Source: Deltaproteobacteria bacterium
GTDB taxonomy: Bacteria > SAR324 > NAC60-12
Reading direction: 5' to 3'
DNA length: 41,612 bases
NCBI GenBank assembly: GCA_002726945.1
Contig: PBTB01000073.1
Coordinates: forward strand, 1 to 41,612
Under the pieces are notes generated by a model that saw nothing but the letters and a program-made list of their open reading frames with translations, was not told the DNA's origin and did not search any database. This document shows positions 23,629 to 41,612 of this stretch, one piece after another. A program made the position numbers and the translations under genes. The stretch's first letter is position 1. Each line of letters starts with the position of its first letter.

Positions 23629-24326
23629 CTCCGTGCATTCCGTTTCCCTTCACTCCGGAAGACGAGGCGAGGGTGGTCCAGTGTCTCCGGGAGGATAGGC
23701 TGCTCGCTTTTCCAACGGAAACCGTCTATGGCCTTGGAGGCAACGCGCTCTCCGAAACCGTGGTGCAGCGAGTTTTCGCTGCAAAGGGGAGAGCGGCAGA
23801 AAAGGCGCTGCCCGTGTTGGCGACTCCGGAACAAGTCCGGGAACTGGCGGTTTGGAACGATGCCCGTGTTGATGCACTGATGGAGAAATTCTGGCCGGGG
23901 CCGTTGACACTCGTGCTACCCGCGCATCCTGAACTTCCGGAGTTTTTGCGGGGGCCAAACGACACGATTGCGGTGCGCCACTCTCCGGCTCCAGCGGTGC
24001 AGGCCTTGCTGGAACTTGGCGGAAAGCCGCTCATCGGCACCAGTGCAAACCGCAGTGGCCAACCCTCGTGCCGGAGTCCCAATGCCGTTGCTGGACAGCT
24101 TGGTGAGACGCTTGATTTGCTAGTGGACGGCGGTTTGGCATCGGAGACTCGGCCATCTACGCTTGTGCACTGGGATGGCGAATCCTTTGAGATTTTGCGG
24201 GAGGGCGTGTTATCTTCAGATGCTTTGGCTGCGTTTCTCTTGGTCGCGTTGGGCGGCCTACCGACGCAAGCGACCGATGCGGGTGTGCCACCCCGTGCTA
24301 TCCGAAAATCCGGAGACTCTCAATAA
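23625..24326 (+). CDS. tsaC: L-threonylcarbamoyladenylate synthase (TsaC/YrdC/Sua5 family)
   Basis: LAFPTETVYGLGGNA, KGRAAEKALPVL, WPGPLTLVL, TSANRSGQPS. Confidence 0.9.
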   Translation: MTPCIPFPFTPEDEARVVQCLREDRLLAFPTETVYGLGGNALSETVVQRVFAAKGRAAEKALPVLATPEQVRELAVWNDARVDALMEKFWPGPLTLVLPAHPELPEFLRGPNDTIAVRHSPAPAVQALLELGGKPLIGTSANRSGQPSCRSPNAVAGQLGETLDLLVDGGLASETRPSTLVHWDGESFEILREGVLSSDALAAFLLVALGGLPTQATDAGVPPRAIRKSGDSQ

Positions 24327-24543
24327 CTGGAGGATCACTGCTGTAGGTGTCAGTGGAGAGTGTGCACCAAGTCGTCGTGGCCCTCCTCTTCACTCAGCAA
24401 AGCCTTGATGGGAAACGGGATCATCTCCGTATTCCTGCTGGAAGGTTGTCAATTCAAAAGGATCATAATACACCAAAACAACACCGGATTCACCTATTTG
24501 CCGACATGGGCCAACATCGATTATCAGCGCAAGAGAAAGTGTG

Positions 24544-26247
24544 TTAGAGATTTGCGGATCCAACCTTGGAGTTACCGTTCCGCAAAATTTGTCCTGAGCG
24601 TTCTTCCGTGAGTTGATCATCCCTGAGGATAACCTGACCGTTGCAGACGGTCGCCTTGTATCCGGCTGCGTGCTGGATGAACCGCGGAGCCCCGAAAGGA
24701 AAGTCATGCACGATTTCCGGCATACGTTCTTCCAGCCGAGCCATATCAATGACATTGATATCGGCGCGCTTGCCAACCGCTAAAGTTCCTCGATCCTCAA
24801 GCCCCAAGACACTTGCCGGAACCGCACTTATCCGCCGAATCGCTTCCTGAATCGAATAGAGTCCGTTGTCCCTGTGCCAATGGGACAGGGTAAAGGTGGC
24901 CCAGCCTGAGTCAATCATCTGACTGACGTGGGCTCCGGCATCGCCAAGGCTGGGCATTGCCCAGTCTGTGGAGATTAAATCGGGTAGAGCCTCAAGGTCC
25001 ACATTAAAGAGCCGCATGTGAAACAGTGCTTTTCCATTGGTTTCATCGCTAATTCTCAGCCAGGTTTCCACCGGGTGCTCACCCGCTGCTTCGGCTAGAT
25101 CATACAAGCTCTCTGAGAGATTCTGTGTGTAGCAGGGCCGTTCTTCATCTCCCAGATAGAATGCGTTTTTCATCAAGGAGAGTTCCCTTTTCGAAAAAAC
25201 CATTAAATCCGCATCCTTAGCTTTTCCTTCTTCCACCAGTTTTTGACGAGTATCAGGGGTACGAATCGCCTGCATTCGTCCTTCAAGATCAAGTTCTTTT
25301 AACTTGCTCCATGCGGGTGATTTAAATGGGAAATTATTTGTTGAAATCCCGGTCAAAAAACCGCCACTGCGGGCAGGGGTGACTGAGGCGACGTTGAGGC
25401 CTTCGGCACGCATTTGCATCACGCGTTCGTTTGTGCGTTCCAGACCTAACTCCAGTGCAGAACTGAACAGCACCCCTCGTGCCATGCGGGCTTCATCGGC
25501 CAAGAGCTCCATTTCTGCATCGAAATCACTAAAATCTGAGACCGTTTGCATAATGCCTCCATGCACCCCGACTGCTTTTGCAATAGCCCGCAACTCATCA
25601 CGGTCGGCAAAGGTTCCGGGGATGGAACGACCATCAGGCAGTCGGTGTGCTGGAAACCGGTTGGTTGAAAAACCGATGGCACCTTCTTTGACGGACTGGC
25701 CCGCCAACTCGGCAATCTGTCGAATCTCTTCCTCCGTTGCAGGCTCCTCGACTGCACGCTCTCCCATGACGTAAAAGCGAATTGCACAATGCCCCACCAG
25801 CCCACAGATGTTGATTGAGGGTTTCAAGGTCTCAAGTGCATCAAGATAGCCCCCGTAGGACTCCCAGTTCCAGGGCAGTCCATGCAGAATTGCGTTTTTT
25901 GGGATATCCTCAACGGTTTCCATCATCCCTGCCAGGAATTCACGGTCTTTTGGCTTGCAAGGAGCAAAGGTGACCCCGCAGTTTCCAAGCAGGGCCGTGG
26001 TGACCCCGTGCCAACTCACCGAGGTGAGTTGAGGATCCCAGCCGATCTGCGCGTCAAGGTGGGTGTGCAAATCGATGAACCCTGGAGAGACGGTAAGGCC
26101 TTCAGCCCGTATTTCCTGTTTGCCCTTTCCATCGACTTTGCCGATCTCGACGATCTCGTCCCCGGCAATGGCGACATCTGCCTGAAACGGGTCTGCTCCG
26201 GTGCCGTCCACAACGGTGCCGTCCCTGATAATGAGGTCATGGTTCAT
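24544..26247 (-). CDS. N-acyl-D-amino-acid deacylase (D-aminoacylase), amidohydrolase superfamily
   Basis: MNHDLIIRDGTVVDGTGADPF...IAGDEIVEIG...PGFIDLHTHLD and family-typical length (567 aa). Confidence 0.88.
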   Translation of the reverse strand: MNHDLIIRDGTVVDGTGADPFQADVAIAGDEIVEIGKVDGKGKQEIRAEGLTVSPGFIDLHTHLDAQIGWDPQLTSVSWHGVTTALLGNCGVTFAPCKPKDREFLAGMMETVEDIPKNAILHGLPWNWESYGGYLDALETLKPSINICGLVGHCAIRFYVMGERAVEEPATEEEIRQIAELAGQSVKEGAIGFSTNRFPAHRLPDGRSIPGTFADRDELRAIAKAVGVHGGIMQTVSDFSDFDAEMELLADEARMARGVLFSSALELGLERTNERVMQMRAEGLNVASVTPARSGGFLTGISTNNFPFKSPAWSKLKELDLEGRMQAIRTPDTRQKLVEEGKAKDADLMVFSKRELSLMKNAFYLGDEERPCYTQNLSESLYDLAEAAGEHPVETWLRISDETNGKALFHMRLFNVDLEALPDLISTDWAMPSLGDAGAHVSQMIDSGWATFTLSHWHRDNGLYSIQEAIRRISAVPASVLGLEDRGTLAVGKRADINVIDMARLEERMPEIVHDFPFGAPRFIQHAAGYKATVCNGQVILRDDQLTEERSGQILRNGNSKVGSANL

Positions 26248-26390
26248 GGTGTGTCTTCAGTGATTATGTTTGGTGGTGTCCGAATCAAAACAGTGTCCAT
26301 TGTAGTGGCATGTATTGTATAAAACAATGTAATTCCCAATTCCTGAATGTCCAGGACTTACGAAAATTTTTTCTAAAGCACTGATATTAT

Positions 26391-26550
26391 GATAGTCGCC
26401 CTCTGGAGTGTTGTTCCTCTGAAAAATCGGGAACAATAACTGGAAACCGGGGGACACGCACCGGAAAACGCCGTCTCTTTGCAAAATCCCAACACTTGAC
26501 AGGGTGACCCCTGCTGAGGACAGGCGTCAACACTCCAGAGGGGGGCTGTC
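26391..26550 (+). mobile_element. MITE-like 160-bp repeat with about 24-bp terminal inverted repeats, copy A
   Basis: Left end GATAGTCGCCCTCTGGAGTGTTG. Right end CAACACTCCAGAGGGGGGCTGTC. The core differs from copy B at roughly 12 positions over about 120 bp (hand alignment). Confidence 0.75.
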
Positions 26551-26621
26551 CAGTTCTCAAACCCGAGTGCAACCCCGAACATTGCTAAAAACTCTCAAGT
26601 TCTTCACAGGGACGATATTTT

Positions 26622-27392
26622 CTAATCAACGCTAACCCCCTCCGCCGTCAGTACGGGTTTTCCCAAATACTGAACCAACTCCTGAAACGCTCCCAGAATT
26701 TCCGAATCTGACTCGGGATAGCGTAACCGCAGGCTAACCTGTCCCCAATGAGTTCCTGAGTGGGCGTAGATACCCAGACGTGCTTGCGGATAGTTTTCGT
26801 CAAACTGCCTCACGGCACCAGCAAGGTCGCCTTCCCGTGCCTCCAAGCGGACTTCGGCTCGTTTTGTTGGAATGGCGGCTTGCACTCTCCCAAACAGTGG
26901 CAGAATTTGTGGAACCATCGCTTTGAGCATCTTTGGAAATCCGGGAAACGCGAAAATGCCGGAGTGGTGGAACCCGGGGGCGCCATGGGGGTTCTTCAGC
27001 AATTCGCAGCCTTCCGGGAGCATCGTCATGTTCTGCCGACTCTCATTGAATTCTCCACCGTAACGTTCGGCCAGTAGCGCCCAGCAGTCCGGATGTGTGA
27101 CCACCTGCACTCCCAGCGCCGCAGCAATGCCTTCACGGGTGCAGTCGTCATGTGTGCCGCCGATGCCTCCGGAAACGCAGATCGGAAAGTGACTGGATCC
27201 CTTGAGTTGCTGAAGCCAGTGGGCGATCACCGCAATGTCATCCGGCAGGCTGAGTGCGACGTTGGCCGGGTGCCCCTGATCATGGAGCCAGTTGGTCAGC
27301 CATTGAGCGTTTTCATTACCCCGCTCTCCCAACACCAACTCATCCCCCACTGTTACCACCGCGGCACCAGCCTGATCCTCTTTTTTTGACAT
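26622..27392 (-). CDS. CinA-like MoCF-biosynthesis (molybdopterin-binding) domain protein, COG1058-like, without PncC deamidase domain
   Basis: VVTVGDELVLGERGNENAQWL...ICVSGGIGGTHDDCTREGIAAALG. True ATG at 27390-27392. The 51-codon upstream extension in ORF 26622..27545 reads through repeat copy B. Confidence 0.8.
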   Translation of the reverse strand: MSKKEDQAGAAVVTVGDELVLGERGNENAQWLTNWLHDQGHPANVALSLPDDIAVIAHWLQQLKGSSHFPICVSGGIGGTHDDCTREGIAAALGVQVVTHPDCWALLAERYGGEFNESRQNMTMLPEGCELLKNPHGAPGFHHSGIFAFPGFPKMLKAMVPQILPLFGRVQAAIPTKRAEVRLEAREGDLAGAVRQFDENYPQARLGIYAHSGTHWGQVSLRLRYPESDSEILGAFQELVQYLGKPVLTAEGVSVD

Positions 27393-27403
27393 GTTCAATT
27401 GCT

Positions 27404-27563
27404 GGTCGTCTCCCCCTCGAGGGTTGTTCCTCTGAAAATCGGGACCAATAACTGTAAACCGGGGGGAACGTACCGGAAAACACCGTCTCTTTGCAAAATC
27501 CCAACACTTGACAGGGTGAATCTTGCTGAGGACAGGCACCAACACTCAAGAGGGGGGGCTATC
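27404..27563 (+). mobile_element. MITE-like 160-bp repeat, copy B
   Basis: GGTCGTCTCCCCCTCGAGGGTTG ... CAACACTCAAGAGGGGGGGCTATC. Begins only 12 bp from the cinA-like start codon. Confidence 0.75.
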
Positions 27564-27758
27564 CAGATATTAAATATCTCTAATTTCACCGAGAGTCAAG
27601 CCCGATTGCACCATCCTTGGCGACTCCCTCCAACTGGAACCTCCGACCCTGCCGATTTCCCCGTTGACTTGCTCAAATCAAGGTGATACTCCTAAAGCCA
27701 AAGTACCGGGAGAAGAATCCCCATTGTCCTCAGAAAATTCACTTGACACTCGAACGGG

Positions 27759-28127
27759 GATAGTTCCCCTCTTGAGGGTTGTTCCTCTGAAAATCGGGAA
27801 AAATAACTGAAATCCGGAGCAACGCTCCGGAAAACGCAGTCTATCTTGTGCTTGGCAGAAAATTAGTCAACTACATGATATTTAATGGTATTCACCTATT
27901 TTCAAGAAACGAGGATTTTGGGGAAACTCATCAAAAATCCCATTTTTTGCTGATTTTGGCCATCTGAACACGGTATCAAACAAATCCTCATCCTGTTAAA
28001 TTCAAGAAATATCGTTTAATATCAGAAATTTGTGTATTTTATTCCAAGCACTATCTTGCAAAATCCCAACCCTTTACAGGATGAATTTTGCTGAGGACAG
28101 GCACCAACACTCCAGAGGAGGACTATC
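27759..28127 (+). mobile_element. MITE-like repeat, copy C, interrupted by a nested insertion
   Basis: GATAGTTCCCCTCTTGAGGGTTG ... CAACACTCCAGAGGAGGACTATC. Removing 27849-28058 restores a 159-bp element colinear with copies A and B. Confidence 0.75.
27849..28050. mobile_element. 202-bp AT-rich non-autonomous TIR element nested in copy C, with 8-bp target-site duplication
   Basis: Direct repeat CTATCTTG at 27841-27848 and 28051-28058. Ends are TGCTTGGCAGAAAAT... and ...ATTTTATTCCAAGCA, matching at about 14 of the first 17 nt as inverted repeats. 65 G+C of 202 nt by my count. Confidence 0.8.
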
Positions 28128-28250
28128 GACTTTTTACGAGCCCATCAAATGTAAAAACCAGAAGACGTTATAGCACGGTTGCACCTCCAGAAGACCGCTT
28201 TGAAGCCAGCACTCACTTCGGTCATGGCCGGAGCTTTCATGTCCTTCAGG

Positions 28251-28279
28251 TTGACGTTCGCCTCCTGAATCCATAACCT
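28251..28279 (+). promoter_or_regulatory. Candidate sigma70-type promoter for the peptide ABC operon
   Basis: TTGACG (28251-28256), 17-nt spacer, TAACCT (28274-28279). Lies just upstream of AAGGAG and the binding-protein start. Motif match only. Confidence 0.3.
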
Positions 28280-28296
28280 CAACAAGGAGTATGATC

Positions 28297-29874
28297 ATGT
28301 CCAAAAAAACCACGATCCTTGCCATCGCACTTGCGTTTTGCACGTCATTGTTCGCCGCGAATCCGGTGTCGGCAGAATCCACCCTCCGAGTGGTGATGCA
28401 CTCGGATCTGAAGATCGTTGACCCGGTCTGGACCACCGCTTACATGTCCCGGAACTACGGATACATGGTGTATGATACACTGTTTGCACTTGACAGCAAC
28501 CTGCACGTCCAGCCGCAAATGGTGGGGGATTATTCGGTGAGTGACAACAAACTCACCTACACCATGACTTTGCGCGACGGACTGATGTTCCACGACGGCG
28601 CACCTGTCACTGCCGCAGATGCTGTGGCTTCTCTCAAACGTTGGGGGCAAAAAGACGGGATGGGGCAAATGTTGATGGAATACACTGCCGATTTGAGCGC
28701 AGTCGACGACAAGACTCTGAAATTGATCTTGAAAAAGCCGTTCGGGCTGGTGCTGGACGCGCTGGCGAAGCCGAGTTCCAACGTGCCCTTCATCATGCCC
28801 AAGCGTGTGGCGGACACTCCGGCGTCGGAACAGATCAAGGACCACACGGGTTCCGGACCCTTCATCTTCAAGGAGGACGAGTGGAAACCAGGCGACCGCA
28901 CGGTGTTCGTGAAGAACCCGAACTACAAGGCACGGAGTGAGCCGTCGAGTTGGATGTCAGGCAGCAAGGCCGTGAACGTGGACCGCGTGGAGTGGATTTC
29001 CATCAAGGACCACCAGACCGCCGTCAATGCCCTGCTCGCAGGCGAGATTGATTACATGGAATCGGTCCCGCATGACCTGCTTCCGTTGCTGGACGCGGAC
29101 CCGAATGTCCAGACAGCGGTGCTGAATCCGCTGGGGAATCAGTACATGTACCGCATGAACCATCTGCATCCGCCGTTTGACGATGTCCGGGTTCGCCGTG
29201 CCGCCATGTGGGCTGTCAACCAGAAGGACTTTCTGCAAGGCGTGATCGGCAATCCGAAGTACTACAAGGAATGCGCCGCCATGTTCTTCTGCGACACCCC
29301 GCTGGCCACGGACAAGGGAGCGGAGATCATGATGCGCTCGGACTACGAAAAGTCGAAGGCACTGCTGAAGGAAGCCGGGTACGACGGCACCCCGATTGTG
29401 CTGATGCACTCCACCGACCTGAATGTCCTTGCCAATCTGGCCCCCGTGGCCAAGCAGAATCTGGAGCGCGGCGGCTTCAAGGTGGACATGCAGTCAATGG
29501 ACTGGCAGACCCTTGTCTCCCGGCGTTCCAAGCAGGATCCTCCGGGGAAGGTCGGCTGGAACCTCTTCATGACTTCCTGGCAATCTCTGGACATCCTCAA
29601 TCCTATCATGGCAGCAGGTTACCGGGCAAACTGTAACAAGGCGTGGTTCGGCTGGCCCTGCGACACGACAATGGAAGTTCTACGCAAGGCCTTTGCCGAG
29701 GAGCCGGATCCGGCACAACAGAAGGCCATCGCCGAGGCGATTCAGATCCGTGCTATGGAGTACGGCACTCACGGTCATGGAGGTCAGTGGCTGGATGTCA
29801 CGGCATGGCGCAAGGATCAGATTTCCAATGTCCCAAATGCTCCGCTTCCGGTGCAATGGAGCATTTCAAAGTAA
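28297..29874 (+). CDS. Peptide/nickel ABC transporter substrate-binding protein (family 5, DppA/OppA-like)
   Basis: Signal peptide MSKKTTILAIALAFCTSLFAANPVSA. Family-5 SBP-like sequence throughout. ATG at 28297 has better spacing from AAGGAG (28284-28289) than ATG at 28291. Confidence 0.9.
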   Translation: MSKKTTILAIALAFCTSLFAANPVSAESTLRVVMHSDLKIVDPVWTTAYMSRNYGYMVYDTLFALDSNLHVQPQMVGDYSVSDNKLTYTMTLRDGLMFHDGAPVTAADAVASLKRWGQKDGMGQMLMEYTADLSAVDDKTLKLILKKPFGLVLDALAKPSSNVPFIMPKRVADTPASEQIKDHTGSGPFIFKEDEWKPGDRTVFVKNPNYKARSEPSSWMSGSKAVNVDRVEWISIKDHQTAVNALLAGEIDYMESVPHDLLPLLDADPNVQTAVLNPLGNQYMYRMNHLHPPFDDVRVRRAAMWAVNQKDFLQGVIGNPKYYKECAAMFFCDTPLATDKGAEIMMRSDYEKSKALLKEAGYDGTPIVLMHSTDLNVLANLAPVAKQNLERGGFKVDMQSMDWQTLVSRRSKQDPPGKVGWNLFMTSWQSLDILNPIMAAGYRANCNKAWFGWPCDTTMEVLRKAFAEEPDPAQQKAIAEAIQIRAMEYGTHGHGGQWLDVTAWRKDQISNVPNAPLPVQWSISK

Positions 29875-33428: not shown

Positions 33429-33490
33429 GCGAAAACCGCAGTCACGTTCAATCTCCCACTGAGAAAACCCTGGATAACAGTGTTCGGTTC

Positions 33491-34165
33491 TTAACGTCTT
33501 TTACTATCAGTCCGTCCGAGCGTCTGTCCGGTCTTGGCCCAGTCGTCGAGGAAGGCTTTCAGCCCCTTGTCCGTGAGCGGGTGGTTGAAGAGTTGGAAGA
33601 TGACCTTCGGGGGCGCAGTGAAGACATCGGAACCGATTTTTGCGGCAGCGAGGACGTGTTGCGGGCCGCGCACCGAGGCGGTGAGGATTTGTGTGTCAAA
33701 GCCGTAGTTGTCGTAAATCTCGCGGATGTCGGCGATGAGTTCCATGCCGTCCTGGCCGAGGTCGTCCAACCGTCCCACAAACGGGCTGATGTAGCGGGCA
33801 CCCGCCTTGGCCGCGAGCAGGGCTTGGTTGGCGCTGAAGCAGAGGGTGACATTGACCGGATGTCTGTCCTGACTGAGCGTTTTGCAGGCCCGGATGCCTG
33901 CCGGAGTGAGTGGCACCTTGACGACCATGTTGTCCGCGATTTCCCGCAACCAGCGTCCTTCTCGGACCATCCCTTCCGCCTCGGTGGAAACGGTTTCTCC
34001 AGAAATGTCGCCGGGACAGATCGAGCAGATTTCCACCAGCACCTCCCGGATGTCGCGCCCGGACTTGGCGATGAGGCTGGGGTTGGTGGTCACACCATCA
34101 ATGATACCCAAATCTTGGAGGACTTGGATTTCCTGGACCTCGGCGGTGTCGGCAAAGATTTTCAT
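33491..34165 (-). CDS. tal: Transaldolase / fructose-6-phosphate aldolase (short subfamily 3B)
   Basis: [36 protein letters not shown]...VKVPLT...NVTLCFS...YISPFVGR. Confidence 0.92.
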
Positions 34166-41429: not shown

Positions 41430-41548
41430 GATAGTCCCCCTCTTGAGTGTTGGTGCCTGTCCTCAGCAAAATTCGTCCCCTGTAAAGTTTGGGATTTTGC
41501 AAAGAGACGGCGTTTTCCGGTACGTTTCCCCCGGTTTACAGTTATGGT
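41430..41548 (-). mobile_element. MITE-like repeat, copy D (inverted orientation, truncated or interrupted)
   Basis: GGATAGTCCCCCTCTTGAGTGTTGGTGCCTGTCCTCAGCAAAATTC...CCGGTTTACAGTTAT is colinear with the reverse complement of copy B for about 117 bp. Similarity then stops abruptly. Confidence 0.7.
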
Positions 41549-41612
41549 AAAAGCTACTAGTTATAGGACAAATTTAGACTGGGATACAAACAGTCAAACA
41601 ATTGATATTAAA

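Follow-up and report, generated by a model that had tools for sequence, protein, structure and literature searches.

The Correia elements of Neisseria and the RUP elements of Streptococcus pneumoniae are bacterial MITEs, and both duplicate the dinucleotide TA where they insert. IS481 produces a 6-bp duplication at a palindromic NCTAGN target. Nested transposon insertions, from which the order of events can be read, are classic in plant genomes and are also known for bacterial insertion sequences. The element described here shares many features with bacterial MITEs: a size in the range of about 100–400 bp, a lack of coding sequence, inverted ends, a target-site duplication (TSD), a hairpin fold, and a dispersed distribution that is mostly intergenic but sometimes genic. 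It has, however, no sequence relationship to the Correia or RUP elements, appears to duplicate 6 bp of the form TANNTA, and every copy seen comes from uncultured marine bacteria. The duplication of 6 bp at a short palindrome containing TA is reminiscent of IS481, but the resemblance is in behaviour only, the target here being TANNTA and not NCTAGN. In most copies TA abuts both ends, as with MITEs of the IS630/Tc1-mariner type, but the TA-only duplication that defines the latter is not what is seen, since 6-bp repeats are present in three or four loci. As in the classic nested insertions, a younger element lies within an older one that it has split, and its removal in silico restores, or nearly restores, the outer element; unlike them, both partners are MITE-sized, the inner one is decayed, and another contig (L047, see below) shows the opposite juxtaposition.

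The stretch of DNA analysed (41,612 nt; hereafter the window) is the whole of one contig of a metagenome-assembled genome labelled "Deltaproteobacteria bacterium". Members of the matching 90% protein cluster belong to metagenome-assembled genomes labelled SAR324 cluster, and one in the neighbouring cluster carries the label Candidatus Lambdaproteobacteria. The window contains an insert of 202 bp (27849–28050), of which 65 bases are G or C (32.2%, compared to 58.8% for the window outside it), and the insert is bracketed by two copies of the 8-mer CTATCTTG, at 27841–27848 and 28051–28058. A recount confirmed the position of this direct repeat, and the length and composition of the insert, as they had been given in the original prediction. 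A third occurrence of the 8-mer, at 25842–25849 on the minus strand, has no relation to the insert. The insert starts with TGCTTGGCAGAAAAT and ends with ATTTTATTCCAAGCA, and these inverted ends match at 13 of 15 positions, after which the similarity stops (i.e., 13 of 17, slightly fewer than the 14 of 17 first estimated). When the window was scanned for 8-mer direct repeats lying 60–3000 bp apart and enclosing ends with an inverted match of at least 13/15, this site was the sole instance, and the same search of 200 locally shuffled windows, each of which still had around 2300 8-mer pairs, returned none. The longest ORF in the insert is 39 aa, no Pfam match was obtained at E ≤ 1, and no tRNA or protein domain matched it. 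Rfam gave no match at the gathering score in the window, and a permissive search of 26200–28400 gave only chance-level hits (E > 0.1). A size below 600 bp, terminal inverted repeats, a TSD, the absence of coding capacity and the existence of dispersed copies are among the features by which MITEs are recognised, and all of these were found. The nested insertion is genuine, and the explanation that best accounts for the data overall, to which we assign a probability of about 0.88, is that the segment is a copy of a MITE family that inserted in the centre of a pre-existing repeat and duplicated TATCTT.

The repeat that received the insertion is about 160 bp long, has inverted ends of 23 nt (GATAGTC...GACTATC) and a G+C content of about 55%, against 32% for the insert, and is present four times in the window. 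Copies A (26391–26550) and B (27404–27563), both on the plus strand, are uninterrupted, copy A having GTCTCTTTGCAAAA where copy C is split. Copy C (27759–28127, plus strand) is divided into a left half (27759–27847), opening with the inverted end of its family, GATAGTTCCCCTCTTGAGGGTTG, and a right half (28052–28127), closing with ...CAACACTCCAGAGGAGGACTATC. Copy D (41430–41545, minus strand) is truncated at its 5' end but intact at the insertion site. Alignment of the four copies confirmed that it is exactly the insert segment that divides C, while A, B and D are continuous. No obvious TSD accompanies the outer family at any of its four copies. Copies A, B and C are all in the plus orientation, within 1.8 kb of each other, and intergenic around a CinA-like gene. 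In copy D, homology is lost at ATAACTG and is replaced by AT-rich sequence (41546–41612) up to the end of the contig; this sequence has no match among the fetched sequences, and may mark another element that has interrupted a second outer-family copy.

Deletion of the insert plus one duplicate had been expected to restore the sequence of the uninterrupted copies, and this holds nearly, but not exactly. At the insertion site, copies A, B and D read GTCT followed by CTTTGCAAAA (...GTCTCTTTGCAAAATCCC), whereas copy C without the insert and one CTATCTTG reads ...GTCTATCTTGCAAAATCCC (GTCTATCTTGCAAAA), so that the restored copy has one surplus base and one or two substitutions relative to the others. 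An inexact restoration of this kind fits the identity of only about 85% between copy C and the other copies.

Copies of the insert were found elsewhere in marine metagenomes, showing that it represents a dispersed family rather than a locus-specific sequence. When stop-free translations of the insert were joined into a six-frame composite and compared with 5.8 billion proteins, seven ORFs (146–206 aa) were retrieved that end in or cross its translated sequence, with identities of up to 97%, and a search of 1.84 billion representatives with its 39-aa ORF added 14 further ORFs that read into copies. Altogether there are at least 21 copies beyond the window, each of the ORFs having a different upstream part, and this occurrence in unrelated contexts supports the core claim of the original prediction, namely that a small, non-autonomous element with inverted ends transposed into a pre-existing copy C. 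Nine contigs fetched as DNA (L045–L053) represent seven distinct loci, with copies that are 92–94% identical to that of the window. In L046 the copy lies inside an SBP_bac_5 gene and in L045 inside a gene for a SagB-like dehydrogenase, while L048–L050 show one and the same insertion, at a small gene's stop codon, in three JGI samples. The copy in L053 comes from a Tara Oceans assembly, according to the record name, and overall the sources comprise a Tara Oceans assembly, JGI marine samples and ENA assemblies. Copies occur in either orientation. One (P0156) lies inside another copy of the same element: the ORF runs out of one inverted copy and into the left end of a second, with ...AAAATA directly followed by GTGCTTGG, and the insertion site fits the target preference of the family. 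A 42-nt motif is shared, at 90% identity, by an intergenic part of the window (33466–33507) and L053 (4281–4322), where it lies within a 315-bp stretch of 32% G+C directly upstream of the MITE copy; it may belong to another small repeat family.

Several other searches returned nothing. There is no second copy of the MITE within the 41.6-kb contig, blastn of the insert against plasmids and phages gave no match, and viral contigs contained no match to a conserved internal 27-mer and only four chance matches to the consensus end. The pattern TGCTTGGMAKAAAATWMRYMAAY gave nine single matches in GTDB species representatives and 22 in JGI metagenome contigs, but none extended in blastn and they are regarded as chance. 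This pattern had been fitted to both ends of the window copy, with A fixed where the consensus has C (CCG, not CAG or AAT), and because it was built on degenerate ends these particular scans could not detect the family.

The consensus of the family is 203 bp (205 bp with a terminal G and C), non-coding, and 34% G+C. Its inverted ends, (G)TGCTTGGCCGAAAA, are perfect over 14–15 nt, as they also are in L046, L048 and L051, and weaker inverted similarity continues to about 45 nt. It folds into a hairpin over its whole length (−31.8 kcal/mol, z = −3.8), compared to z = −1.6 for the window copy. The latter differs from the consensus at 17 of 203 positions, with one change in the left end and four in the right, and is the most diverged copy seen, all others differing at only 1–7 positions (0.5–3.4%). 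In its 204-bp reading, which includes the terminal G and C (27848–28051, plus strand; 202 bp as first drawn), the window element runs from GTGCTTGG to CCAAGCAC. The left terminal inverted repeat, GTGCTTGGCAGAAAA (27848–27862, plus strand), has one mismatch to the family consensus GTGCTTGGCCGAAAA. The right one (28037–28051) reads GTGCTTGGAATAAAA on the minus strand; against the consensus right end, TTTTTCGGCCAAGCAC, three of its bases are substituted and one is deleted, and it is thus eroded. Judging from these changes, the window copy is probably an old, decayed and immobile fossil that a transposase would hardly recognise now. The low G+C content of the insert fits the family, whose consensus has 34% G+C wherever the copies are located, and is compatible with the foreign origin that it had been taken to indicate, but is no proof of one.

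The size of the duplication could be addressed only by comparing the family, because in the window alone the 6-bp, 8-bp and 2-bp registers are indistinguishable. The eight bases to the left and the eight to the right of TGCTTGG...CCAAGCA are CTATCTTG and CTATCTTG in the window, GTAAGTAG and CTAAGTAG in L048, TTAAATAG and CTAAATAA in L052, TTACATAG and CTAGCTAG in L046, and TGTACTAG and CTAGTTTG in L051. Left flanks are available for L045 (CTATCTTG), L047 (CTATCTAG) and L053 (ACTAATAG). On the left, the base adjacent to the element is G at all nine DNA loci, and on the right it is C at all five, and all the flank mismatches of L048 and L052 are at the outermost positions of the would-be 8-mer. 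Since the adjacent bases are invariant and the outermost ones vary, these alignments are most simply read as an element that includes the terminal G and C, which lengthen its inverted repeat by one pair, and a duplication of 6 bp: TATCTT in the window, TAAGTA in L048–L050 and TAAATA in L052. An ORF that crosses a whole copy (P0165) is flanked by SYL on one side and LSS on the other, which fits TATCTA on both sides and probably reflects a duplication of that sequence. By comparison with L048, L052 and P0165, the left TSD copy in the window is placed at 27842–27847 and the right at 28052–28057 (both TATCTT, plus strand), the latter within the 8-mer at 28051–28058. The perfect 8-bp TSD of the original prediction is therefore real as a repeated 8-mer, but the family comparison favours a 6-bp duplication and a 204-bp element. 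In two of the five full DNA loci, L046 and L051, the flanks are unmatched. The record name of L046 gives a coverage of about 1.2×, and we assume that these two cases reflect either chimeric, low-coverage assembly across a repeat or recombination between copies.

The flanks also point to a strong target preference. At each of 20 independent left ends, L or I (codon NTA or CTT) is encoded just before the element, and at 12 of the 20 the residue one further out is Y (TAY); being drawn from ORFs, this sample is biased against TAA and TAG in the place of the Tyr codon. As read from these flanks, the target is approximately (C)TANNTA(G), and insertions independent of one another are found time and again beside (C)TA(Y)NTA(G). 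The sequence CTATCT(T/A)G recurs beside four independent copies, and its recurrence shows that the preference is strong; the window repeat would reach 8 bp because the neighbouring C and G of the target equal the terminal bases of the element itself. Only in the window and in L045 is the element adjoined by TT rather than TA, and at both sites the native sequence also has TT: all the outer-repeat paralogues read TTGCAAAA at the insertion site, and an uninterrupted relative of the L045 gene (P0171) encodes EGYLVIDK, so that TATCTTG is native gene sequence there. The 8-mer CTATCTTG is native sequence in an unrelated SagB-like gene.

Two of the alternatives accept the insertion but differ about its boundaries. 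The same element could be 202/203 bp long, end in TG...CA and genuinely duplicate 8 bp at a CTANNTAG target. Many DDE transposons terminate in TG...CA, all eight bases of the window repeat agree, L048 and L052 match at 7/8 and 6/8 in the 8-bp register, and the finding of CTATCT(T/A)G beside four independent copies would suit this reading as well. It is nevertheless unlikely, although the most credible of the alternatives, given that all three mismatches in L048 and L052 fall at the outermost positions while the adjacent G and C do not vary. An element of IS630/Tc1-mariner type is a good deal less probable. It would duplicate TA only, or have ends that include TAG/CTA together with a 2-bp duplication, and the longer repeats would then be context. 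TA does adjoin the element on the right in 5/5 flanks and on the left in about 90%, L051 would be restored to ...GTACTAGTTT, which contains CTAG, and the ends loosely resemble the Tc1 terminus, CAGTGCTGGCCAAAAAG, a likeness useful as a lead only. But the repeats at three loci are of 6 bp and direct, not inverted, and a TA-only duplication would need pre-existing, periodic TAnnTAnnTA targets three times over. With it, the restored copy C would also exceed A, B, D and the copy in L047 by six bases, where the 6-bp model leaves a surplus of one, and both copies that adjoin TT sit where the native sequence has TT.

The remaining alternatives do not involve transposition into copy C, or see in the insert something other than a selfish element, and none of them is at all probable. 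A mobile functional module (small RNA, promoter or terminator cassette) that has been retained for the ABC-transporter operon downstream would agree with a position about 240 bp upstream of the SBP gene, with one weak promoter-like match in the left end, and with the window copy being unchanged at consensus positions 66–123 despite 17 changes elsewhere. The central region varies in other copies, however, Rfam offered no match, promoter and terminator scans were at the level of shuffled sequence, and copies lie inside coding genes and in either orientation, as expected of a selfish element; the copies are too similar to each other for any test of covariation. We think it slightly less probable still that an assembler spliced a community repeat into the contig of this genome. 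The window is indeed one entire contig of a metagenome assembly, marine metagenomes commonly contain the family, and two other contigs have non-matching, possibly chimeric flanks, but the flanks here are the contiguous halves of a single repeat copy, the perfect duplication is far below the k-mer size of assemblers, and 17 private differences from the consensus are not those of a consensus-like intruder. Least credible of all, and effectively refuted, is the reverse history, in which the 202 bp are ancestral to a longer outer repeat and copies A, B and D arose by deletion between the CTATCTTG repeats. Slippage between 8-bp direct repeats would leave exactly one 8-mer, and only one interrupted copy is present in the window, but the segment occurs alone, without the outer repeat, in L045, L046, L048 and L051–L053, its own inverted ends abut the repeats, and its G+C content of 32% is set against about 55% in the outer repeat.

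Under the preferred reading, that of a MITE inserted with a 6-bp duplication, the element would be moved in trans by the DDE-type transposase of a parent insertion sequence. Such a transposase would bind the inverted ends and cut with a 6-bp stagger at a palindromic, TA-rich target, and one copy would in this way have landed in the middle of copy C and duplicated TATCTT. Neither the fetched loci nor the viral contigs, plasmids and phages yielded an autonomous partner with the same ends.

The insertion is intergenic and disrupts no gene. Downstream of it is a gene for an ABC-transporter substrate-binding protein (SBP_bac_5; 28291–29874, plus strand), which opens an ABC-transporter operon and whose ATG lies about 240 bp beyond the end of the insert, and on the other side is a CinA/MoCF-like gene (26622–27392, minus strand). 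The region 24300–29000, which contains an amidohydrolase gene, the CinA/MoCF-like gene and three of the four outer-repeat copies, has a G+C content of 51–55%, compared to about 60% elsewhere in the window.

Comparison with related lineages did not provide a clean empty site for either element. Among relatives at 92–93% identity, L001 and L002 differ in their upstream synteny, while the contig of L003 stops 137 bp upstream of the gene; in relatives at about 80% nucleotide identity (L035–L044), only the operon is common to the window. The closest relative with data, L003 (87–88% nucleotide identity), lacks a block of 511 bp (27705–28215) in which the whole of copy C is accompanied by a further 54 and 88 bp, and the orthologous locus is therefore informative only in that the whole of this region varies between close lineages. 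The edges of the block in the window carry AAGCC(A/G) on both sides. A promoter-like TTGACT box is about 95 bp from the SBP ATG in L003 and about 620 bp from it in the window.

At this locus the order of insertion is unambiguous, with copy C first and the MITE later. The clear order of events that had been proposed stands to that extent, but it does not carry over to other sites, as the opposite arrangement is seen in L047 (JGI 3300006013). There, at 497–734, a complete copy of the outer family (93% identical to copy D) is joined directly, at precisely its left end, to the first 73 bp of the MITE, whose continuation is absent from the far side. Either the nesting was reversed here and part of it then lost, or the assembly is a chimera formed across repeats. 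Whichever reading of L047 holds, both repeat families co-occur in related genomes. The two families had been described as active in this genome; their co-occurrence is borne out, but activity of the inner one is not, given that the 41.6-kb contig has a single, decayed copy of the MITE with an eroded right end. The start of L003, the ends of L045 and L053, and the end of the window all lie in or beside copies of the two families, which suggests that assemblies of this lineage recurrently break because of these repeats.

At this locus itself the insertion is of little consequence, being a probably old, non-coding insertion in an intergenic repeat. Its wider value lies in the recognition of a marine-dispersed MITE family that has a sharp target preference, interrupts genes in some populations, and co-occurs with a second family of short repeats with inverted ends, the two being adjacent or nested, in both orders. 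The MITE also creates spurious ORF calls, and all 21 of the ORFs by which copies were traced (21/21) are artefacts of reading into the element. No prior description of the family was found in the full-text literature, whether by its terminal sequence or by SAR324 together with MITE. The contig flanks of near-consensus copies (0.5–3.4% from the consensus) range from 34% to 58% G+C, those of L046, L048–L051 and L053 having 52–58%, like the window, and those of L045 and L052 only 34–38%, and the presence of such similar copies in such different backgrounds hints at spread between lineages. It is a tentative proposal, and one that we hold to be possible rather than probable, that this hitherto undescribed MITE family, with an unusually strict palindromic target, (C)TANNTA(G), and a duplication of 6 bp, has in recent times spread, possibly by horizontal transfer, through bacteria of the sea that are as yet uncultured. 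If true, an unrecognised or unusual transposase would be active in ocean bacterioplankton, and the MITE could be used as a marker of gene flow between lineages.
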